Assembly (NCBI GenBank): GCA_039024555.1
Contig: JBCCQQ010000040.1
Span: forward strand, 1 to 56,973
Source: Cyanobacteria bacterium P01_D01_bin.156
GTDB taxonomy: Bacteria; Cyanobacteriota; Cyanobacteriia; Phormidesmidales; Phormidesmidaceae
Reading direction: 5' to 3'
Length of the DNA stretch: 56,973 nt
A program made the translations under genes and the position numbers. Positions 9,942 to 25,835 of the stretch are shown here, piece after piece. Under the pieces are notes generated by a model that saw nothing but the letters and a program-made list of their open reading frames with translations, was not told the DNA's origin and did no database searches. Each line of letters begins with the position of its first letter. Position 1 is the first letter of the stretch.

Positions 9942-11237
9942 TTACTCTGCTTCCAGCACCTTCACCTCATAACGAGCATAGTCCTTATCAATAGAACTAA
10001 TCACCCGCACAGGACGCACCTCTTTAGGCAGCATCGGAGCATCACTGCCATAGACAGCAAGGACATCTTCACTAAGAATCAGCTTCCCGCTAGCATTGTA
10101 GAAATTAACCTGAAGTTTCAAACGACGAATAGCGACATCGCTGGTATTCGTAAAGGCCCATTCGGCATCGAAGTAAGCGCTGTCCGTAATATCGTAGACT
10201 TTTAGGTTTTCGCTACGGGCTCTAAGATCAAAAGTAAGTTGAGCAGGCTGCTGAAAACCCCATTTATATGGGATTGGAGTTCCTGGAGCATAGCTACTTG
10301 GAGCTGGAACCTGATCAACCGTAAGCACGTTTAGGCTAACGCTAGCCAGATCTGGAGTTGTTTTCTGGATGAGGTCAAAGGCGTGGGAATCGCCAGGACG
10401 CACAATGGCCTGGTTATCCGCAATGGCATCTTTACTATCCGTTGCGATCGCATTGCCGGCCTGGTCAAGATAATCAATATTGAGCTGCACAGCCTCTATT
10501 TCTTGGTTACCCGTATTCTGCAACACCGCCTGCAAAGTGTAATAGGATGCATCATCGTAATTATCTAAACGAGATTGACGCGGCTCTAAACGAAGGCTGA
10601 CTTCTGCTTGATTTAGGGTGATGGGAATGTCAGCGGCTGCTACTGAAGCATCAGGCTCTGCCGAAGTTTCTAGGGTTGACGCTTCAACCAGGCTGTCAGA
10701 CCGATTGTTTAATGCTTCTTGAGCCAGCCGTTGGGCTCTAGACCGTTCGTTGAAAAAGTCCACAGCCGGGATGCTGACTAAAGCTAAGAGCACTATAGCC
10801 CCTCCCAGCCACAGATAGCGTTGACGACTGTCAACACCATGTTCTAATGAGCTAATCAATACCACTGACTCAGCATGCTTTGGATGGAGATCCAGACAGC
10901 GCTTAGCTAACGCAATGGCCTGCTTTTTATCAGCTTCTTTTTTTTGCTTGCCATAGCGCTGATCGTAGGCATAGGCCAAATCACGCAAACTTTCAAAATT
11001 GAGAGGATCTAGGGCAGTTGCTTGGGTCAGTTCCTCAATCGCCTCATCCAAACAATCAAAATCTAAATAGTTTCGACCTCGGTCAGAATGATCCTTAGCT
11101 TTTTGTTCAACAGCAGCCATATCATCGGGGCCTAGCCCTGCTTCCTCAGCCAAACTCGTTAGGGCTGCTGCAGTAACGGGCTCTTCCCAACTAAGCAGCC
11201 GTTGTATGTAGTCTTCAATGATTTGATCGCGACCCAT
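9942..11237 (-). CDS. Membrane protein: N-terminal TPR, TM helix, two FxLYD-like domains (paralog 3)
   Basis: MGRDQIIEDYIQRLLSW, TPR AIEELTQATALDP, TM, IDYLDQAGNAI and VNFYNASGKLI. Confidence 0.8.
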   Translation of the reverse strand: MGRDQIIEDYIQRLLSWEEPVTAAALTSLAEEAGLGPDDMAAVEQKAKDHSDRGRNYLDFDCLDEAIEELTQATALDPLNFESLRDLAYAYDQRYGKQKKEADKKQAIALAKRCLDLHPKHAESVVLISSLEHGVDSRQRYLWLGGAIVLLALVSIPAVDFFNERSRAQRLAQEALNNRSDSLVEASTLETSAEPDASVAAADIPITLNQAEVSLRLEPRQSRLDNYDDASYYTLQAVLQNTGNQEIEAVQLNIDYLDQAGNAIATDSKDAIADNQAIVRPGDSHAFDLIQKTTPDLASVSLNVLTVDQVPAPSSYAPGTPIPYKWGFQQPAQLTFDLRARSENLKVYDITDSAYFDAEWAFTNTSDVAIRRLKLQVNFYNASGKLILSEDVLAVYGSDAPMLPKEVRPVRVISSIDKDYARYEVKVLEAE

Positions 11238-11453
11238 GGGAAAACCCGACGATTTTAGGTAAGTGTAGAATTACTTTTTTTATACACACCACTAAGGGCT
11301 TAACTGTGACTATCAGCTTGAGCATTTGCCCACACTTCTTAAATAGATAAAGCTGATATGTTTGTAAGCTGATTCACTTGTAAGCGTACAGAAGCTCATT
11401 AATACCCCAATAGTAAAGTGTAGCGGTTTCTTTCGGCATCCTGTCGAAATCAC

Positions 11454-13055
11454 CTATTTGGCTTCTAGAACAGTTACCTGATAGCGTTCATAGCCGCTAG
11501 GGATGGATTTAATCACACGGAACGGTCGTATTTCACCGGAGAGTAGCGGCGCATCATTTTTGGAAACGGCCATGATTTCTTCAATTTGTAGCCGCCGATC
11601 TCGACTGTTGTAGAAAGACACTCTCAGCTTGAGCTTCCGAAGGGGATAGTTGCTACTGTTAATTAGCACCCACTCGGCATTGAAATCACCGACATTGGCA
11701 GTATCGTTTTTCTGGGTCGCAATCGACGGAGTATCTGATTGTGCGTTATCTGCATCACGCTTCTTCGACCCATCAGTGGTGCTACTTTCACCGCCAGCAG
11801 CAACCTCTTCATTGGTAGTATCGTCCTCTGCACCATTAACAGCGGCTTGGCTGGCCCCACTGTTCTCTGGTGGAGATGTGCTCTCTAGGCTACCGTCACC
11901 CTCAGCGGAATTAGGGTCACTTTCCTGGTTTGGGTCTGCGGTATTTTCATCATCGCTATTGTCATTAAAGTATTCACTACGGCTAGCGAGCTCAAAACTA
12001 ATCTCATCGGGCGGTAGGGATTCCCAACTGTAGTTGATGGGTGTAGGCGGCACATAAGTGTTGCGGGCAGGGACCTTTTCTAGACTGACAACATTCAGTT
12101 TTACGGTGTGAAGATCCTGGGTAGCTTCTTGAATAAAATTAAAGGAATAGGTATCGCCGGGACGAATAACAGCATCTGTCGGACCAATGGCTGTGGTTTC
12201 ATCAGCTGCGATCGCAACACCGGTACGATCCAAAAACTCTGCATTTAGGTCAAGTTTACGAATTTCCTGATCGCTAGCATTAATAAAAACCCCATGCAGC
12301 TGGTAATAGATCGCATCTTGATAATCTCCTAGCTGAGAGAATCTCGCTTCTAAAACAATGCCAGGGTAATCAAAAATCACGGGAATATCGACATCAGATA
12401 AAATATCAATATCGGGCAACGTAGGCAGTCTAGGCGTTTTAGGAGTATCCGTTTCACTGGCCTCATAGATAACAGAACCAGGAATAATCGTGCCAGGAGC
12501 AGGGCCAAGGGGATCTGGAGTGGAGAAAACAGGCAGACGACTCACCCCTAATAGCCCCATGGCAACAACAGCCAAGCCACTTACAGCAATAGTCACTCTG
12601 GGTTTAGTCCATTGCCAGGTGATTTTTTGACTCTGATTCGGAGTATGTTCTAAAAAACTGATTAAGACAAGAGCTTCCTTATCATTAGGTTTTAGAGCTA
12701 CGCAGCGTTTGGCTACTAGTAGGGCCTTTTGTCGATCGTCCGCAGCGTTTGCCCGGGTGTAACGCTGGTTATAGGCATTGGCAAGAGCGTGGAGCAGATC
12801 CAAATTTAATGGGTCCAACTTCATCGCCTGGGTAAATTCATCAATAGCGTCATCCAGAGAGTCAGACTTTAAGTAGTTTCGACCACGACTGATGTGGGCC
12901 ATCGCCTGGCGTTTAACAGCATGCATCTCTGCAGGCGAAATGCCCACCTCCTTGGAGATCGTAGCCAATGTATTCTTATCGAGCGGTTTATCCCAATCGA
13001 GTAGTTTCTGAATATATGCCTCGATGATGCGTGCTTGGCCCATACCTTTACCCAC
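11454..13055 (-). CDS. TPR-TM-FxLYD-like protein (paralog 2) with acidic insertion
   Basis: IIEAYIQKLLDW, AEFLDRTGVAI, VSFYNSRDRRL; homologous to both neighbours. Confidence 0.8.
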   Translation of the reverse strand: MGKGMGQARIIEAYIQKLLDWDKPLDKNTLATISKEVGISPAEMHAVKRQAMAHISRGRNYLKSDSLDDAIDEFTQAMKLDPLNLDLLHALANAYNQRYTRANAADDRQKALLVAKRCVALKPNDKEALVLISFLEHTPNQSQKITWQWTKPRVTIAVSGLAVVAMGLLGVSRLPVFSTPDPLGPAPGTIIPGSVIYEASETDTPKTPRLPTLPDIDILSDVDIPVIFDYPGIVLEARFSQLGDYQDAIYYQLHGVFINASDQEIRKLDLNAEFLDRTGVAIAADETTAIGPTDAVIRPGDTYSFNFIQEATQDLHTVKLNVVSLEKVPARNTYVPPTPINYSWESLPPDEISFELASRSEYFNDNSDDENTADPNQESDPNSAEGDGSLESTSPPENSGASQAAVNGAEDDTTNEEVAAGGESSTTDGSKKRDADNAQSDTPSIATQKNDTANVGDFNAEWVLINSSNYPLRKLKLRVSFYNSRDRRLQIEEIMAVSKNDAPLLSGEIRPFRVIKSIPSGYERYQVTVLEAK

Positions 13056-13297
13056 TGAGTTCCGCTAGCGCAGCAATTTCGATTGCACAGCTATGTCAAT
13101 CCATTCTTCGGTTGTGCCTTAGGATACGGATAAAAATCTGACTAATTTGAGTAAAGTCTTCGTAGACGGGCAGTTCGATAGGTTAAGCCAGGGCCTGACA
13201 TTAGTTTTTGTTCAGCAAATTATTGGAACCATAGACCATTAGATTCTTCTGTACACTGTCCTTAGGGCATCACAGTTAACCACACCAAGAGATTCAG

Positions 13298-14479
13298 CTA
13301 GTCTACAGTCGTCATATCTTCGCCACGGCTGATCAGCTGGCTATGATGGCCCTCCGGCAGCCATGAACCCAAACTAAAATTGTTGGGAATTGGAGGATTA
13401 TAGGGTTTATTATCAACCACTTGTTCAATGTCAGTAACACTCACCCGCACCTGAATTAGGTTGGGGGTAATTTTATGAAACAGCTCAAAGGGCTGAATAT
13501 CTCCCGGTCGAATGCTGTTGTTACTGATGGTAGTTTGATTGATCGTGGCAATTGGTACCCCATCCCCATCCAAGAGTTCCAATTTCAAATCAAGTTTTCT
13601 TACCTCTTGGCCACTATCGTTGATCAACAGACCATGCAGTTTGTAATAGTCGGCACCGTCATATTCTCCTAGACGCGACAAACGAGGCTCTAGAAACAAT
13701 CCAGGATATTGAAACGTAACAGGAATATTTGGTCCGGGATCAAAAACCGGGACTGACAGTAAATCATCGACGGCATCTAGATCAACAGCTCCCTTAGCGC
13801 TCAAAAAACTAGAATTGATAGCTTTGGGAGTGGGTCTAACGCCCCCTGGCAGACGATTACCCCCGATAAACACTACACCGACCGTTGCCATCCCTCCAAC
13901 CAATACAGCCAACTTTGAAACCGTTGGCCTACGAGTATCACTGGCTAAATTACGTACAGTTACCAGGGTGGCTTGGGCCAATTCCAGAAGATGTTTGGGA
14001 TTAGTACTTTGCTGAAACTGATCAATCAGTGCAAAAATTGGGGGCCGTTGTTGTCGTGACCCGGTGTGGTATCCGGCCTTGCGTTTAAGGCGCTTTAGCA
14101 GAGCCAACGCATCTTTATCATTGGGATACAATTCAACACAACGATTGGCAATCAGCCGTGTTTGTTGTCGATCCAACAGATTACTTTCTTTTTGATAGCG
14201 CTGATAATATAGCTCCGCTAAAGCATTGAGCACATCTGCATTCACTGGATCTAAGTTGCTAGCCTGAACCAGCTCATCAATAGCACTATTGAAATTATCA
14301 ACATCCCTATAGCTGCGGCTGCGTTCAAGGTGATTTTGCACTTTGAGCTTAATAGCGGCTAGTTCCCCTGCCGTAATCCCAAGCTCTTGCGCAATCGTAT
14401 TCAGAACATCGGGAGTAATTGGCTGATCCCAGGCAAGCAGTTGTTGAATATAGGCCTCAATAATACTGGCGCGACCCAT
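13298..14479 (-). CDS. TPR-TM-FxLYD-like protein (paralog 1), single FxLYD domain
   Basis: MGRASIIEAYIQQLLAW, LELLDGDGVPI; second domain missing. Confidence 0.8.
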   Translation of the reverse strand: MGRASIIEAYIQQLLAWDQPITPDVLNTIAQELGITAGELAAIKLKVQNHLERSRSYRDVDNFNSAIDELVQASNLDPVNADVLNALAELYYQRYQKESNLLDRQQTRLIANRCVELYPNDKDALALLKRLKRKAGYHTGSRQQRPPIFALIDQFQQSTNPKHLLELAQATLVTVRNLASDTRRPTVSKLAVLVGGMATVGVVFIGGNRLPGGVRPTPKAINSSFLSAKGAVDLDAVDDLLSVPVFDPGPNIPVTFQYPGLFLEPRLSRLGEYDGADYYKLHGLLINDSGQEVRKLDLKLELLDGDGVPIATINQTTISNNSIRPGDIQPFELFHKITPNLIQVRVSVTDIEQVVDNKPYNPPIPNNFSLGSWLPEGHHSQLISRGEDMTTVD

Positions 14480-18736: not shown

Positions 18737-19321
18737 ATGACGATTGCTACCAATAAAACGCTGACTCTCGCAGAGTATCTGACCTATGACGACGGTACAG
18801 GGACTCGTTATGAGTTGGTGGACGGGGTACTAGTGGAAATGCCGACCGAGAGCCCGATTAATAAAACCATCGTCATGTTCTTGGTAAGCTATTTCTTGCG
18901 ATTAGGAATTCCCTATCATCGACTTGCTATCGGTCATCAGCTAGAGGTTACTTCTGAAAAAGTATCTGCCCGAGAACCAGATTTAATTTTGCATTCGGAG
19001 AAATCTGCCGCTGCAATTTTGCAAGACGGTAAGCTGTTGCGTCTGGGCATGCCGATACCGGATTTAGTGGTGGAAGTGGTATCCAGTAGTGACACGGACC
19101 AAAAATCTCGAGAGAGAGACTATGTAGAAAAGCGAGAAGAGTATTCAGAACTTGGGATACCGGAGTATTGGATTATAGATCCAGTGGCGTCGGTTATTTT
19201 AGTTTTGACTCTGGCAGATGATAAATACCAAGAACGTAAATTCCAAAATAACGAAATAATATTGTCCAGCTTTCCTAAAACAGATCTTACTGCTGCTCAA
19301 ATATTAAAAGCTGGCCTTTGA
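18737..19321 (+). CDS. Uma2-family endonuclease-like protein
   Basis: YELVDG.LVEMP, PDLVVEVVS, GIPEYWIIDP. Confidence 0.93.
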   Translation: MTIATNKTLTLAEYLTYDDGTGTRYELVDGVLVEMPTESPINKTIVMFLVSYFLRLGIPYHRLAIGHQLEVTSEKVSAREPDLILHSEKSAAAILQDGKLLRLGMPIPDLVVEVVSSSDTDQKSRERDYVEKREEYSELGIPEYWIIDPVASVILVLTLADDKYQERKFQNNEIILSSFPKTDLTAAQILKAGL

Positions 19322-21074: not shown

Positions 21075-21305
21075 TTAGAAGACACGGATTTTATCCTCTA
21101 AAACAGGCTGTCTTAAATGTTCTTTGATGGCGTCTTCTGTGTCGAGATCTACTGGATACTGGAGCACATCTTGCAGACATAGCCTGATTTTACTCACACC
21201 AAACAGCCCAATTGGACGGGAAAATTCTACGAGGCAGTCGATGTCACTGTTGGCAGTTGCTTCGTCTCTGGCAAACAAATAGGGACTGATGGCACGGTTA
21301 AGCAT
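21075..21305 (-). pseudogene. Degenerate minimal nucleotidyltransferase (MNT antitoxin-like)
   Basis: LFARDEA..SDIDCLVEF..VDL; the GS of LFGSxAR is missing, the N-terminus is truncated and no HEPN partner is adjacent. Confidence 0.7.
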
Positions 21306-21334
21306 TAGACATTATCTATCGTAGTGAGTCGTTG

Positions 21335-21367
21335 ATAGGAGGAGACAATATCAGAGGTCTCTCCTAT
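21335..21367 (+). promoter_or_regulatory. Hairpin overlapping the transposase start codon
   Basis: ataggaggagac-aatatcagag-gtctctcctat pairs with one bulge and includes AGGAGG and the AT of ATG. Confidence 0.45.
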
Positions 21368-22130
21368 GTCAAGGAAACCAAGAATATTACAGGCCAATTT
21401 TTGTTATCACATTACGATGCGGTGTAATAACCGAGAATTTCGACTGACGCGCTATGAATGTCGCTCGGTGTTGTTGTATGCCATTCAAAAATGTCGAGAG
21501 ACCTATGGGTTTAAGCTCTATGCCCTATGCATTATGAGCAACCACGTGCATTATCTGTTGGAACCCCAGCAGCCGGAGGATTTACCCAAAGTTATGCACT
21601 GGCTCAATTGGTATACGGCTATGTGTTTTAACCGCATGTTGAATCGTACCGGACATTTTTGGGAGAAGCGGTATCACAGCAGCGGGTTTTCAAATACGGA
21701 TGCTCGACGGGTGCTGAATACCATTCGTTATATCCATGGCAATCCCAAGGCGGCCAGTATGCAGCAGGGCTTTTTCTATGATTTTAGTAACTACGGCACT
21801 TACGAACGATTGACCCAGGATGGCATTACCCAATGGCATCCTGCATTTATGGCGTTGGGGGCTACGTTAGAACTATGTGCTGAGGCATATCGGCGGTTTT
21901 GTCAGCGGTATAAGCCGAAGCCCAAGCCAGAAAAGCGTAACCACTGGGGAAGTAAATTGCTGGCACGGGTAAAGCTAAAGGGTAAACCGAAGAAAAAGAC
22001 GAGCCCTGGGCAAAAGTCATTGTGGCAGGAATGGGATGCCCCCATGGAAGAAATCCAGACGGTGGCTGAGAAATTTGTCACAGCAAATGCCCTGAATCCC
22101 GAAATAGCAAGGTGCCAGGTATTGAATTGA
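21366..22130 (+). CDS. HUH Y1 tyrosine transposase, RAYT-like (IS200 superfamily)
   Basis: YHITMRCNNR, CIMSNHVHYL (HUH), GHFWEKRY, TIRYIHGNP (catalytic Tyr); no tnpB beside it. Confidence 0.9.
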   Translation: MSRKPRILQANFCYHITMRCNNREFRLTRYECRSVLLYAIQKCRETYGFKLYALCIMSNHVHYLLEPQQPEDLPKVMHWLNWYTAMCFNRMLNRTGHFWEKRYHSSGFSNTDARRVLNTIRYIHGNPKAASMQQGFFYDFSNYGTYERLTQDGITQWHPAFMALGATLELCAEAYRRFCQRYKPKPKPEKRNHWGSKLLARVKLKGKPKKKTSPGQKSLWQEWDAPMEEIQTVAEKFVTANALNPEIARCQVLN

Positions 22131-22207
22131 TAAAACGGCGAGGATTGGTATGTAATGGCGGTGTTTAAGAAAGTTTAGATCGGGCTGAAGTGCTTATATG
22201 CTACAGT

Positions 22208-24541
22208 TCACAAGCCTGGATGCGAGAGAAGAGAACAGCCGCCACAAAGAGGAGACGCCAGAGGAGACGCCGCCACCGTCGGCAAATTCCCGACAGGAGA
22301 TTTTTCTAATAGGCTAAATTGAAATTCCGAATAGGTCACGTACTTAGCCTCACGGCGCCAGCCGATGCGATCGCAAAAATCATACCAAATTTCGTTACCT
22401 GGATATGATCCATCCAACAATGCACCACAGTCTGCATAAATATTTTTCTGAACGCTGAAGCCAAAATGTCCCTGACTATAGTTCACCCAGAGCCGATCAA
22501 TCACTCGTAAATCTGCACAAGGAAAGTTACGAATATCATCTAGGTCCAGATACCCTTTTTGATCCATATCACCAACTGCTTTTATTAAGCTATAGGTTTC
22601 CTGATCGGCTTCTCTCCACCGCTGGGTTTGCAAATAATAGGCCAGCTTAAAATATCGAGGCGTTACTCTATCGGCATAGGTAAAGTCTTCCTTCTCTAAT
22701 ATCCGTAACGGCTCCTGGAGTTTTTCCCGCAAAGCCGCCTGCACATCAGCCTCCACAGTTACTGCACTCTGCCAAAATTCAGTGGCCAAGAGTAACTTGT
22801 CAAAACTTGGATCGGCTAACGCTGTCTCAATCAACTGGGTGGCATTCCCTTGGGCTGCATACAGTTTCATCGTTTCTGACCACCAGGCTAGCTTTTCCTC
22901 ATCGTCAAATACCTCCAGCAGACAAGCTTCCTGGTGAGTATCTTTGATCTCTACGGCAGCTAGATATTCCTGAAAGCTTAGATGGGCAAATTCAAATTCA
23001 CCTTCTTGCTCTTTAGCAATCAGGGCATCCACCTCTTGCAACCGCTTCAGAAAGTCTTCCGGTGTAAATTGTACCTGGGGTAAATTAGCCAGCTTTTCTT
23101 TCAATACAGGGGCAATATCCGCCAAAGTAAACTTGCGGGTGTTACGTTGCATTAGCTCTAAACAAAGGGGTTGTAAAATAGCCTGTTTTTGACTGGCAGT
23201 CAGCACATCGGACATCCCCTTTGCCTGTGCACGTTTTTCCAAGAGCACCTGGCAAATGTCTCGGTATAGCTCCACCCGATTTCGAGGGATGCTGCCACGA
23301 CGACGATGTACCGTAGCAATCATGGTAAGCAACAGCGGATTTTCTGCCAGATCTTTTAGGACATTGTTATTATCAATTTCCTGAAGCAATAGCTTTGATT
23401 GACGGTCAGCAGCTTCTCTCACCCCCAAATCTTCATGCCCTTGGGCTTTAATTTCAGTCTCCCGATACCACTGATTTACAAAGTCTTGAATCTGACCCGA
23501 TGTTAAGGGAGCAACTTCTAGTACGGTCACCCCTTCTTTTAGCTGAGCGTGCTTATATCCCAACGGACGCGAGGTCAAAATAAACGCGGTTTCTGGATAT
23601 TCATACATTTGTCGATCAACCCAGCGGCTCACCTGTTTACGGTCTTGTTCATCGGCGACTTCATCTAAACCGTCAAGTAAAATCAGCAGACGTTTTTGTC
23701 TTAGCTTTTTGGCAAACCAGTCTTTGGGTGGCCTTAGCGGATCAGTTTGTTGTAAATTTTGAACCCAGTCAGTTAATAGATCTGGCAGCACTAGATCTGG
23801 ATTTTCAATAATTGGTTTGTACACGTCTCGCAAATAAAGCAAGACAGGAATGTAATCGGGTGCTTTTGGATAGATGCGACGCGGTTTTCGCAGGGCATAC
23901 ATCAGGGTCATGTACCGCATCAGTGTGGTTTTGCCCGACCCCGGTGCTCCTAAAATCGCCAGACGACGATAGGCCAGGTCTTTTTTCATCAACGCCAGGA
24001 AATGACCGATGGTATTCTCACGTGGCAGATCTTGTTCGCCTTTAGCTCTAATTTTGCGAATTAGTCGGGTAGAAACCTGGGCAATACTCTTGGCTGTAAC
24101 ATTGACCATCACCACGACCTGTTGCAGATTTAGGATGCGTTCCTGGTCAAGTCCCTGGGTTTCAAAGTTACGACACAGATAATTCAGCCGTTTGTAGTAT
24201 TTTCCTTCAAAGTCTGATGTAAGCTCCCACCAGTGTTGAGAAAGCCATTTGCGCAAGGCATCGAACACTGTACCGATTAGCGACAAAAGAAAATAGAAGA
24301 CCTTAAACAGTCCTTTTGCCGAGGCTTTGCCCAGCTTTTCCATTTCTTGCTCGGCCTCGGTCATAAAGGCACCGCTGTATTTGGCCCACAGCACTGAGCA
24401 ACCTGTTAAAAAGGCAGCAATGGCTGTCTGTGTCGTATCTTGCTTCCATAGAAAGCCAGCAGTGCTAACGAGCCCTGCCCCAAACGGCATCCAAGTAACA
24501 CAGGCTTGCAGCGGCTTTGGAACTGATTTAGGCTTTGCCAT
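22208..24541 (-). CDS. NACHT NTPase - GUN4-domain protein with N-terminal hydrophobic helices
   Basis: GAPGSGKTT, LILLDGLDEV, NPLLLTMIA, FAHLSFQEYLAA; GUN4 WREADQET, FPCADLRVIDRLW..S.GHFGFSVQK, PVGNLP. Confidence 0.93.
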   Translation of the reverse strand: MAKPKSVPKPLQACVTWMPFGAGLVSTAGFLWKQDTTQTAIAAFLTGCSVLWAKYSGAFMTEAEQEMEKLGKASAKGLFKVFYFLLSLIGTVFDALRKWLSQHWWELTSDFEGKYYKRLNYLCRNFETQGLDQERILNLQQVVVMVNVTAKSIAQVSTRLIRKIRAKGEQDLPRENTIGHFLALMKKDLAYRRLAILGAPGSGKTTLMRYMTLMYALRKPRRIYPKAPDYIPVLLYLRDVYKPIIENPDLVLPDLLTDWVQNLQQTDPLRPPKDWFAKKLRQKRLLILLDGLDEVADEQDRKQVSRWVDRQMYEYPETAFILTSRPLGYKHAQLKEGVTVLEVAPLTSGQIQDFVNQWYRETEIKAQGHEDLGVREAADRQSKLLLQEIDNNNVLKDLAENPLLLTMIATVHRRRGSIPRNRVELYRDICQVLLEKRAQAKGMSDVLTASQKQAILQPLCLELMQRNTRKFTLADIAPVLKEKLANLPQVQFTPEDFLKRLQEVDALIAKEQEGEFEFAHLSFQEYLAAVEIKDTHQEACLLEVFDDEEKLAWWSETMKLYAAQGNATQLIETALADPSFDKLLLATEFWQSAVTVEADVQAALREKLQEPLRILEKEDFTYADRVTPRYFKLAYYLQTQRWREADQETYSLIKAVGDMDQKGYLDLDDIRNFPCADLRVIDRLWVNYSQGHFGFSVQKNIYADCGALLDGSYPGNEIWYDFCDRIGWRREAKYVTYSEFQFSLLEKSPVGNLPTVAASPLASPLCGGCSLLSHPGL

Positions 24542-24576: not shown

Positions 24577-25137
24577 TCATGAAGTCTCAATCCCGCGATA
24601 CAGGTCAACAACTGCAAATTCCAAGCCAATACTGGTCAAAACAACCGTATCGTCCTTTTTATAAATTACCGATTCCCAATTACCCGCAACCGTGCACCGC
24701 CAACATTCCACCTGCTGACTCTCTTGAGAAATCAAGACATACTCTTCCAAAGAATCAAGCAATTGATAATCCTTAAACTTATCGCCACAGTCAAATACTT
24801 CAGTGCTTGGCGAAAGCACCTCTGCAATCAGCTTTGGATAACGCTTAATATAGCGATCTTCCCGATCTCTCTGATCACAGGTAACAAAAGCGTCAGGGTA
24901 GTAGAAAAAGTCATCTAAATAATTAACCTTTACATTGCCCGCATGAAACCGGCAAGCGGACGAATTCCCCAAGTGATTATCAATAATTTTAAGCAAATTA
25001 AACGCGATACGCTCATGGTTATCCGTGCCCCCGGCCATGGCATACACCAACCCCTGCCGATATTCATGGCGTATCTGGCTTTGAGACTCCAGAACCAGAT
25101 ACGCTTTAGGACTGATGTAATGGGGAACGGCCATCAT
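24577..25137 (-). CDS. Uma2-family endonuclease-like protein
   Basis: YYPDAFVTCD, PKLIAEVLSPST, EYVLISQ. Confidence 0.93.
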   Translation of the reverse strand: MMAVPHYISPKAYLVLESQSQIRHEYRQGLVYAMAGGTDNHERIAFNLLKIIDNHLGNSSACRFHAGNVKVNYLDDFFYYPDAFVTCDQRDREDRYIKRYPKLIAEVLSPSTEVFDCGDKFKDYQLLDSLEEYVLISQESQQVECWRCTVAGNWESVIYKKDDTVVLTSIGLEFAVVDLYRGIETS

Positions 25138-25265: not shown

Positions 25266-25835
25266 CTACTCTAGTAGCCAATTCATCATGTCTTGCATAG
25301 TTAACCGCATGTCTGCTGCAAACGCGGGCACTGGCAAAGTCTCATCGGGGACTTCCATATCAAACACCTGCAACGAAAAACCCATCCTGTAGACAAACAT
25401 TGTTTGCTCATCTGGGTCAATCAACCAGCCTATCTGAGTACCGTGCTTTAGACAGTGCAACAATTTTTTAGTCACCTTAGTTTGATTCTGATCCGGTGAC
25501 AATATCTCAATGGCCCAGTCTGGAGGAATCAAAAACTGATTAGCAATGATGCCATCCGGCTCACGGGGAATATTGCCCCATTCAAATACCGCCACATCGG
25601 GAATGATCGAACGCCCACTAAAGGTACATCGCAATTCTGGAAATGCTCGCCCCGTGCGCCCAGGCTTTAAGGCCATTTCTACCGCCATGGTCAAATCCCG
25701 CTGCACCGTGCTGTGTTTTCCCTGGGGCATTGGCTTCTGGCTAATGTATCCGTCGATGTATTCGCTAGCAGGCTTAGTCTCTGGCAATGCCAGAAACGCC
25801 TCAAGAGTAATCGGTTTAGTCGGTGCTTGGACCAC
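25266..25835 (-). CDS. Uma2-family endonuclease-like protein
   Basis: LPETKPASEYIDG, PDWAIEILSPDQ, GWLIDP. Confidence 0.93.
   Translation of the reverse strand: MVQAPTKPITLEAFLALPETKPASEYIDGYISQKPMPQGKHSTVQRDLTMAVEMALKPGRTGRAFPELRCTFSGRSIIPDVAVFEWGNIPREPDGIIANQFLIPPDWAIEILSPDQNQTKVTKKLLHCLKHGTQIGWLIDPDEQTMFVYRMGFSLQVFDMEVPDETLPVPAFAADMRLTMQDMMNWLLE

Follow-up and report, generated by a model that had tools for sequence, protein, structure and literature searches.

A variable segment, a three-frame tail and a facing HUH nuclease at the ends of cyanobacterial GUN4 sensor genes: a candidate gene-diversifying module

The GUN4 locus and its adenine-free tract

We examined 56,973 nt of DNA from Cyanobacteria bacterium P01_D01_bin.156 (contig JBCCQQ010000040.1 of assembly GCA_039024555.1), referred to below as the window. 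Within it, the gene of a large NACHT-GUN4 protein converges on the gene of a HUH nuclease, and its 3' end carries a variable segment (VR) that runs into a conserved tail. The features are listed in coordinates of the window.

21366..22130, plus strand: intact TnpA-Y1 gene (RAYT-like HUH nuclease, 254 aa), convergent on the target gene; His60-x-His62, and Tyr122 in Y---NP
22112..22121, plus strand: conserved GTGCCAGGTA motif at the end of the nuclease gene, its first base 123 nt from the junction
22122..22193, no strand assigned: spacer of fixed length, ungapped, with no conserved hairpin
22194..22234, minus strand: conserved three-frame tail, with stops at 22208-22210 (used here), 22201-22203 and 22194-22196
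22199..22207, plus strand: candidate extended -10 box (TG-N-TACAGT), antisense into the VR, overlapping the tail stop codons and not called by the promoter scan
22208..24541, minus strand: target gene NACHT-GUN4, 777 aa (NACHT aa 192-361, GUN4 aa 627-757)
22222..22278, minus strand: 57-nt adenine-free tract, comprising 44 nt of the VR and 13 nt of the tail
22235..22280, minus strand: VR, 46 nt with a single A, containing the 12-nt tandem copy at 22248-22271
22281..22291, minus strand: left VR boundary, G-N-L-P codons (family consensus GHLP)

An earlier note on this DNA had described the tract, and its observations were reproduced; it did not mention the convergent HUH nuclease gene or the element of fixed length. 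On the plus strand T is absent over the 57 nt from 22222 to 22278; no other such run in the window is as long, the second longest measuring 43 nt. With independent bases the chance of such a tract is 7.6e-8 at 25% A and 1e-8 at the gene's own A content. The tract is richer in GC than its gene (65% vs 47%), and its coding strand holds GGCGTCTCCTCT twice in tandem at 22248-22271 and GTGGCGGC twice. The 12-nt repeat of this VR exceeds the longest repeat in all 60 dinucleotide shuffles of the same VR. The proposal that the whole tract is a variable loop stands for 44 nt; the other 13 nt (22222-22234) already belong to the first part of the conserved tail. It was also noted that the third base of the Pro codon in the left boundary is already of VR composition. 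Because eight runs of at least 57 nt without A or without T occur genome-wide, the length of the tract alone is not unique, and the finding is the context of the tract, not the run itself. Elsewhere in the genome, a 63-nt T-free run (C26:42576-42638) lies immediately behind an FGE-sulfatase gene; the genome holds nine FGE-sulfatase genes and no reverse transcriptase match.

The VR occupies the position where canonical GUN4 carries its bilin-contacting LxNxLR loop, and in the window gene LxNxLR after GHLP is missing, with the VR in its place. The available text of PMC10156173 describes this motif as adjoining the bound bilin and also describes paralogs without it. The sections of PMC7159879 available to us list GUN4 as an effector domain of conflict systems and mention neither a variable segment nor a tail. 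The window NACHT protein may sense a ligand through its GUN4 loop.

Copies of the module in the genome

A profile search of the genome returned seven GUN4 matches, six of them over the cut-off. Four of these six genes, on C40 (the window), C6, C21 and C60, share the tail behind four unrelated VRs, and all four face a Y1 HUH nuclease. The nuclease is intact on C40, C6 and C21, these copies being 72-82% identical to one another, and on C60 it is reduced to a C-terminal remnant with a different RAYT alongside. Neither tail nor nuclease neighbour was found at the canonical GUN4 on C38, which retains GHLP-LSNQLR, or at the tail-less gene on C121. The genome (99% complete, 149 contigs) gave no PF00078 (RVT_1) match and no Ku match, and three Y-family polymerase genes were found in it. 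End-joining by Ku was rejected on the lack of a Ku match. In a genome search, the element and tail matched four GUN4 ends only and no second copy of any VR was detected; six VRs, each searched in its own genome, had no donor copy. A diversity-generating retroelement (DGR) was rejected, there being no reverse transcriptase (RT) and no template repeat. The different RAYT gene (C60:140-950) has palindromic repeats on its flanks, adjoins the C-terminal remnant of the module nuclease, and has the appearance of a REPtron inserted into the module.

The facing nuclease and the 123-nt element

The window nuclease belongs to the TnpA-Y1 superfamily (PF01797, 70 bits vs a cut-off of 23). In the homolog alignment H60 and H62 are invariant and Y122 is nearly so, and the catalytic motifs are intact in 119 of 120 (HuH) and 120 of 120 (Y---NP) homologs. 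The window protein reads YIHGNP, and Y---NP is the signature of class 2 (RAYT) TnpA-Y1 proteins (10.1101/279083). The NCBIfam RAYT model NF047646 scored 66.9 bits, below its cut-off of 80, and E. coli TnpA-REP (4ER8) was the top fold match of the predicted model. The DNA upstream of the nuclease gene showed no conservation across 27 loci, and thus the gene is not a two-ended insertion sequence; an IS200/IS605 element was rejected on this ground and on the low identity of the copies within the genome. In the window, a hairpin covers the nuclease start codon (21325-21372, z -2.5) and a sigma70-like site (21372-21345, minus strand) is directed away from the nuclease gene, neither being conserved in the other loci compared. 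Just upstream of the nuclease lies a 76-aa nucleotidyltransferase-domain ORF (21075-21305, minus strand), probably a toxin-antitoxin remnant.

When 251 cyanobacterial genomes were searched with the nuclease, it was present in 25. The 28 nuclease-anchored loci outside its own genome faced GUN4 (20), a cyanobactin precursor (3), a Nif11-type precursor (1) and other or unassessable genes (4). The module also occurs on plasmids, where GUN4 was faced in all three loci examined. Where a tail locus had long flanks (76 cases), nuclease sequence of any kind was present in 38, and in 17 the gene was nearly complete. In the nuclease tree, support was 0.95 for the cyanobactin-facing group and 0.93 for the picocyanobacterial-type group, with the GUN4-facing group unsupported (0.43). 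At one locus (L381) a 44%-identical nuclease and the motif face an uncharacterised gene outside both the GUN4 and the peptide-precursor classes, which may represent a fourth kind of target.

The distance from GTGCCAGGTA to the junction was 123-124 nt in 95 of the 105 loci with the motif, out of 208 examined; in many of the others the flank is short or the element decayed. Many genera share the conserved tail, motif and spacing. Consensus folding, a covariation scan and Rfam found no conserved hairpin or RNA, no structure was conserved in 45 diverse elements, and the window element gave folding z values of 0.12 and 1.13. A REPtron was rejected, given no conserved GTAG-tagged hairpins in the 45 elements and only four element copies, not dispersed. 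An antisense promoter at the window was likewise rejected: it was not called by the scan, and the TAnnnT box is missing in four related loci. A gene-name search of the PMC3610870 transcriptome supplements returned nothing.

Composition and reading frames of the variable segments

A search with the tail pattern yielded 104 genome loci and 37 metagenome loci. After the addition of protein-anchored loci, the left boundary was definable in 129 of 156, giving 117 unique VRs; a larger set comprised 208 loci. VR lengths ranged from 22 to 202 nt. The mean composition (G.37, T.33, A.18, C.12) was alike at all codon positions, which, together with the lack of a gradient, points to a process at the DNA level. 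The G+T content ranged from 0.30 to 1.0, and some VRs were of ordinary composition. Gradual deamination or growth from one end was rejected, as 54 long VRs showed no composition gradient (p 0.59) and no intermediate pairs were found. A possible DNA-level signal at the left boundary was matched by an equal bias at other GUN4 codons.

The earlier note had pointed out that, with no A, a stop codon is impossible in every frame. Absence of A as a guard against stops was not supported, as the unused frames carry stops in 63 and 72 of the 117 VRs. Absence of A is not a family trait: A is wholly absent in just 4 of 117 VRs, and C is depleted more than A. An A-free run of at least 44 nt occurs in 11 of 208 VRs and mean A in the family is 0.18, which makes the window tract an extreme sample from a segment biased toward G and T. 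Stops in the used frame have been strongly purged, with nine observed vs 62 expected from shuffles (n = 117). The triple-frame tail of the earlier note was borne out, all three readings being present and all three used across the family; by length class, frame use was 55/36/26 among the 117 VRs. The readings are LLSHPGL, LFSRIQACEL and SSLASRLVNCSI, each followed by a stop, and the tail ends the protein whichever frame enters.

Direct repeats were enriched in 19 of 117 VRs (p 0.034 or less), and among them the left boundary and the tail are copied. Reverse-complement (fold-back) copies showed no excess in the 117 VRs, and fold-back templating from the flanks was ruled out on that basis. Several loci show copying in detail. 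The GHLP boundary and its upstream DNA are re-copied inside the VR as direct repeats of 10-37 nt at L011, L035, L064, L141 and L371, and copies of the tail lie inside the VRs of L137, L124 and L062. At L137, a stretch of pure G/T DNA separates two pieces that are templated, as template switching might leave behind. A viral occurrence of the module was rejected, as none of 48 short-pattern matches in viruses had GUN4 or the nuclease.

Tail erosion was assessed in 96 GUN4 loci, excluding those found by a pattern that fixes part of the tail. The complete tail start was kept in 42 of them. Among shortened tails whose match starts at positions 1-6, 47 of 51 have the T of a C-T step as their first base (null 44%), a count inflated by kinship in that it leans on related loci of one genus; three further loci with a match from position 7 were excluded from it. 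Three of the 11 position-4 cases are possibly plain C-to-T changes, and slippage loss of TC units mimics the position-2 pattern. C precedes the usual junction in just 6 of 88, so a C-T cut would have to lie deeper and be back-filled, or fall on the other strand. The cut of TnpA-REP falls between C and T, and right ends of the IS608 type would point to the opposite strand. At three GUN4 loci beside a nuclease (L369, L372 and L374) the tail is shortened or lost and the protein ends differently, which makes them natural controls for the role of the element.

Divergence of variable segments between relatives

We compared 132 close DNA pairs, which are not independent and some of which are possibly paralogs, and found no partly related VRs among them. 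At an upstream flank identity of at least 98%, VRs were identical in four pairs and unrelated in one; at 95-98%, they were identical in one and unrelated in seven; and at 90-95%, they were unrelated in 119 of 119. Between close relatives there was no change in the number of repeat units, as a simple-sequence contingency locus would show, pairs being either identical or unrelated. Proteins that are 99.1% identical over 330 aa (P0235/P0238) or 100% identical over 320 aa (P0132/P0234) end in unrelated tips read in different frames, and one cluster at 92-97% identity has five members with five tips in three frames. A VR almost never recurs on another flank. Two loci with decayed tails (L276/L296) have VRs of equal length that differ by substitutions only, and Limnoraphis tips have a few residues in common at the left end of the VR. 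The rate of change is low, because many pairs at 98.5% identity or more retain their VR. VR change is rare and wholesale, not a matter of gradual duplication. The earlier note was thus right about a hypervariable, length-variable GUN4 loop and was not supported in its proposal that short duplications and indels rewrite it.

Variation within the population, which the earlier note had proposed, was not seen: one contig (4,818 nt, depth 19) spans the tract without difference in the only run containing the locus, which may be the source sample, and contigs drop rare variants. In the same run, other contigs exit the tail at 22231-22237 into different, often C/A-rich plus-strand sequence. The sole ortholog-like locus in 21 genomes of the same genus is 77% identical with an unrelated VR, and is too distant for a rate. 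In pairs from the genus Dolichospermum with unrelated VRs, the motif is absent, as is the nuclease where the flank is at least 1 kb. If the nuclease is what changes VRs, unrelated VRs in these motif-less pairs would require it to have acted in trans or before its loss. The G/T content with vs without the motif was 0.70 vs 0.72 (p 0.52).

Peptide-precursor loci and published systems

The same nuclease subfamily and GTGCCAGGTA were found at cyanobactin precursors, with a nuclease identity of about 59-61%. Of 15 precursors, 12 have the motif at 122-127 nt from their stop, and 12 have a sigma70-like promoter directed antisense into the precursor gene. Cyanobactin precursors have a conserved end in a single frame, whereas the GUN4 module has its three-frame tail. 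The available part of PMC6162287 notes a transposase between sphE and sphF and does not tie it to diversification. Arrays of cyanobactin precursors were seen at L377, L376, L385 and L391-L406, where most precursors carry a nuclease 3' end and the motif, and a near-consensus antisense promoter lies 7-8 nt from the precursor stop. The homolog that faces the Nif11-type precursor shares 44% identity with the window nuclease, and GTGCCAGGTA is found there too.

The published system nearest to this one is procA facing tnpA_REP in marine picocyanobacteria, for which a preprint proposed diversification and held the link to be unique to picocyanobacteria, with a hairpin and G4 as candidate sites (10.1101/2020.03.09.984088). 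Its authors withdrew the causal claim, finding no strong evidence for or against causality (10.1101/2020.03.09.984088). The window locus shares the convergent arrangement, the conserved distance and intergenic DNA, the 3' variability of the target, and the many C-terminal nuclease remnants. The target of procA type is a prochlorosin precursor, whereas here it is a large NACHT-, kinase- or caspase-GUN4 sensor with a three-frame tail; the window target is NACHT-GUN4, and the lanthipeptide (Nif11) association belongs to the homolog elsewhere. In a literature search that covered mainly open-access papers and the main texts of bioRxiv preprints, neither the three-frame GUN4 tail nor its nuclease was found described.

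The REPtron of E. coli (4ER8) resembles the module in its HuH and Y---NP motifs, its fold and its few divergent copies per genome. It differs in having GTAG hairpins and dispersed REPs, whereas here neither is present, the element is confined to the ends of four genes, where it adjoins a variable segment that is coding, and the NCBIfam RAYT score falls under the cut-off. In the portion of PMC8266576 available, TnpA-REP forms a tyrosine-5'-phosphate link and leaves a 3'-OH, with CT as its common cleavage site. Cyanobacterial DGRs, as far as the available text of PMC7517822 describes them, target C-type lectin domains and are alike in placing the VR near the 3' end of multidomain signalling genes, with several targets per genome. 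The module differs from them in having no RT, no template repeat and no C-type lectin target, and in its freedom of length and frame as opposed to adenine-only substitution.

V(D)J junctions (CDR3) are formed by RAG and TdT. The likeness to that system is one of outline, in that both would involve a domesticated transposase, trimming at the junction, and filler, likely untemplated, in a binding loop. The enzymes are unrelated, however, segment joining is absent here, and here a three-frame tail rescues frame shifts.

Proposed origin of the variable segments

The diversifying module is real and conserved, and is probably enzyme-driven. To its specific form, a nuclease-initiated and mostly template-free replacement of the VR, we assign a probability of about 0.55. 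In this process the nuclease would bind at, or be positioned by, the GTGCCAGGTA element and would nick the junction in single-stranded DNA exposed by replication or transcription. On the coding strand, a C-T step is the favoured site of the cut, after which the catalytic tyrosine would hold the 5' end of the tail and the free 3' end would be trimmed back toward the GHLP codons. A host polymerase might then extend this 3' end with little template, producing G/T-rich DNA, and an occasional slip would re-copy nearby DNA, the 12-nt tandem of the window being perhaps one such slip. The new end would be rejoined without homology, each replacement being a rare single event. Selection would retain the read-through products, the three-frame tail would make every length usable, and the altered loop would change the binding of the sensor. 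This model is supported by the nuclease sequence that faces four of four tail-bearing GUN4 genes (three intact, one remnant), by the fixed spacing, by catalytic motifs kept intact among homologs, and by all-or-none change, the lack of a donor copy, and tail starts at C-T. Against it stand the single allele in the run, the many unchanged pairs at 98.5% identity or more, the tail loci without nuclease, the Dolichospermum pairs whose VRs are unrelated although the motif is absent, a G/T content independent of the motif, the lack of a REP-type guide hairpin, and the withdrawal of the causal claim for procA.

An exchange of cassettes, in which old VR alleles are shuffled via the conserved flanks or outside fragments are ligated by strand transfer of the nuclease, seems unlikely. 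All-or-none change is compatible with swapping, the module occurs on plasmids, and some VRs are ordinary in composition (G+T from 0.30). In addition, the available text of PMC8266576 describes strand transfer by TnpA-REP in vitro, in which the cut strand is joined to an added oligonucleotide bearing a 3'-OH. However, six VRs lacked a donor in their own genomes, reuse of a VR on a different flank is exceptional, and swapping does not explain the source of strand-biased, low-complexity sequence.

We consider it rather improbable that the VR is a contingency locus with no dedicated enzyme, where slippage, short duplications and indels alter low-complexity G/T DNA step by step, with the nuclease as a bystander. 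The 12-nt tandem in the window, the direct repeats in 19 of 117 VRs, the substitution-only VRs of L276/L296 and the shared left-end residues of Limnoraphis fit such a locus, yet partly related VRs numbered zero in 132 close pairs, the boundaries are sharp and the 123-nt spacing fixed, and the nuclease, whose catalytic residues are retained, lies opposite targets of three unrelated classes. Neutral decay, with a functionless loop drifting beside a stranded transposon end, would agree with the many loci that keep nuclease remnants only and with the GUN4 paralogs lacking the bilin-binding motif in the accessible part of PMC10156173. It is a very improbable account, given the strong purging of in-frame stops, the retention of tail, motif and spacing across many genera, and the inability of drift to swap 30-80 nt between genes that are 99% alike. 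Least probable of all is rewriting by an RT in trans, whether that of a DGR or a different one, perhaps working on antisense RNA that starts in the element, which would suit the depletion of A, the sigma70-like antisense promoter at 12 of 15 cyanobactin precursors, and a 3'-terminal variable region on cyanobacterial multidomain sensors like that of DGR targets (PMC7517822, in the text available), but which is opposed by the absence of an RVT_1 match from a 99% complete genome with three intact modules, by a tail found only at four GUN4 ends and therefore no template repeat, by freely varying lengths, and by a C content more depleted than A.

Nuclease-initiated replacement could extend beyond GUN4. 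We put forward tentatively, at odds clearly short of even, a cyanobacterial RT-free junctional diversifier, in which one HUH nuclease subfamily, now domesticated, would work with a ruler element of 123 nt to place strand-biased DNA, made without a template, at the 3' ends of three unrelated gene classes (GUN4 immune-type sensors, cyanobactin precursors and prochlorosin-type precursors). The GUN4 tail would have evolved three-frame reading to absorb random lengths. Few targeted gene-diversifying systems are known in bacteria. If true, this would be one that needs neither reverse transcriptase nor donor cassette and in which frame shifts are tolerated by design. The origin of the hypervariable cores of cyanobactins and prochlorosins would become testable, the same nuclease subfamily and DNA motif lying beside them, and the three-part cassette of nuclease, element and tail could be assayed in vitro or in a laboratory strain. 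The module would also mark the GUN4 loop of NACHT, kinase and caspase sensors as a surface whose recognition can adapt.

Other genes in the window

Further genes of the window were recorded around the module. Three Uma2-family putative endonuclease genes lie near it (18737-19321, 24577-25137 and 25266-25835), a family common in cyanobacteria. At 9942-14479, three tandem genes gave weak TPR matches, with the rest of their sequence unassigned.
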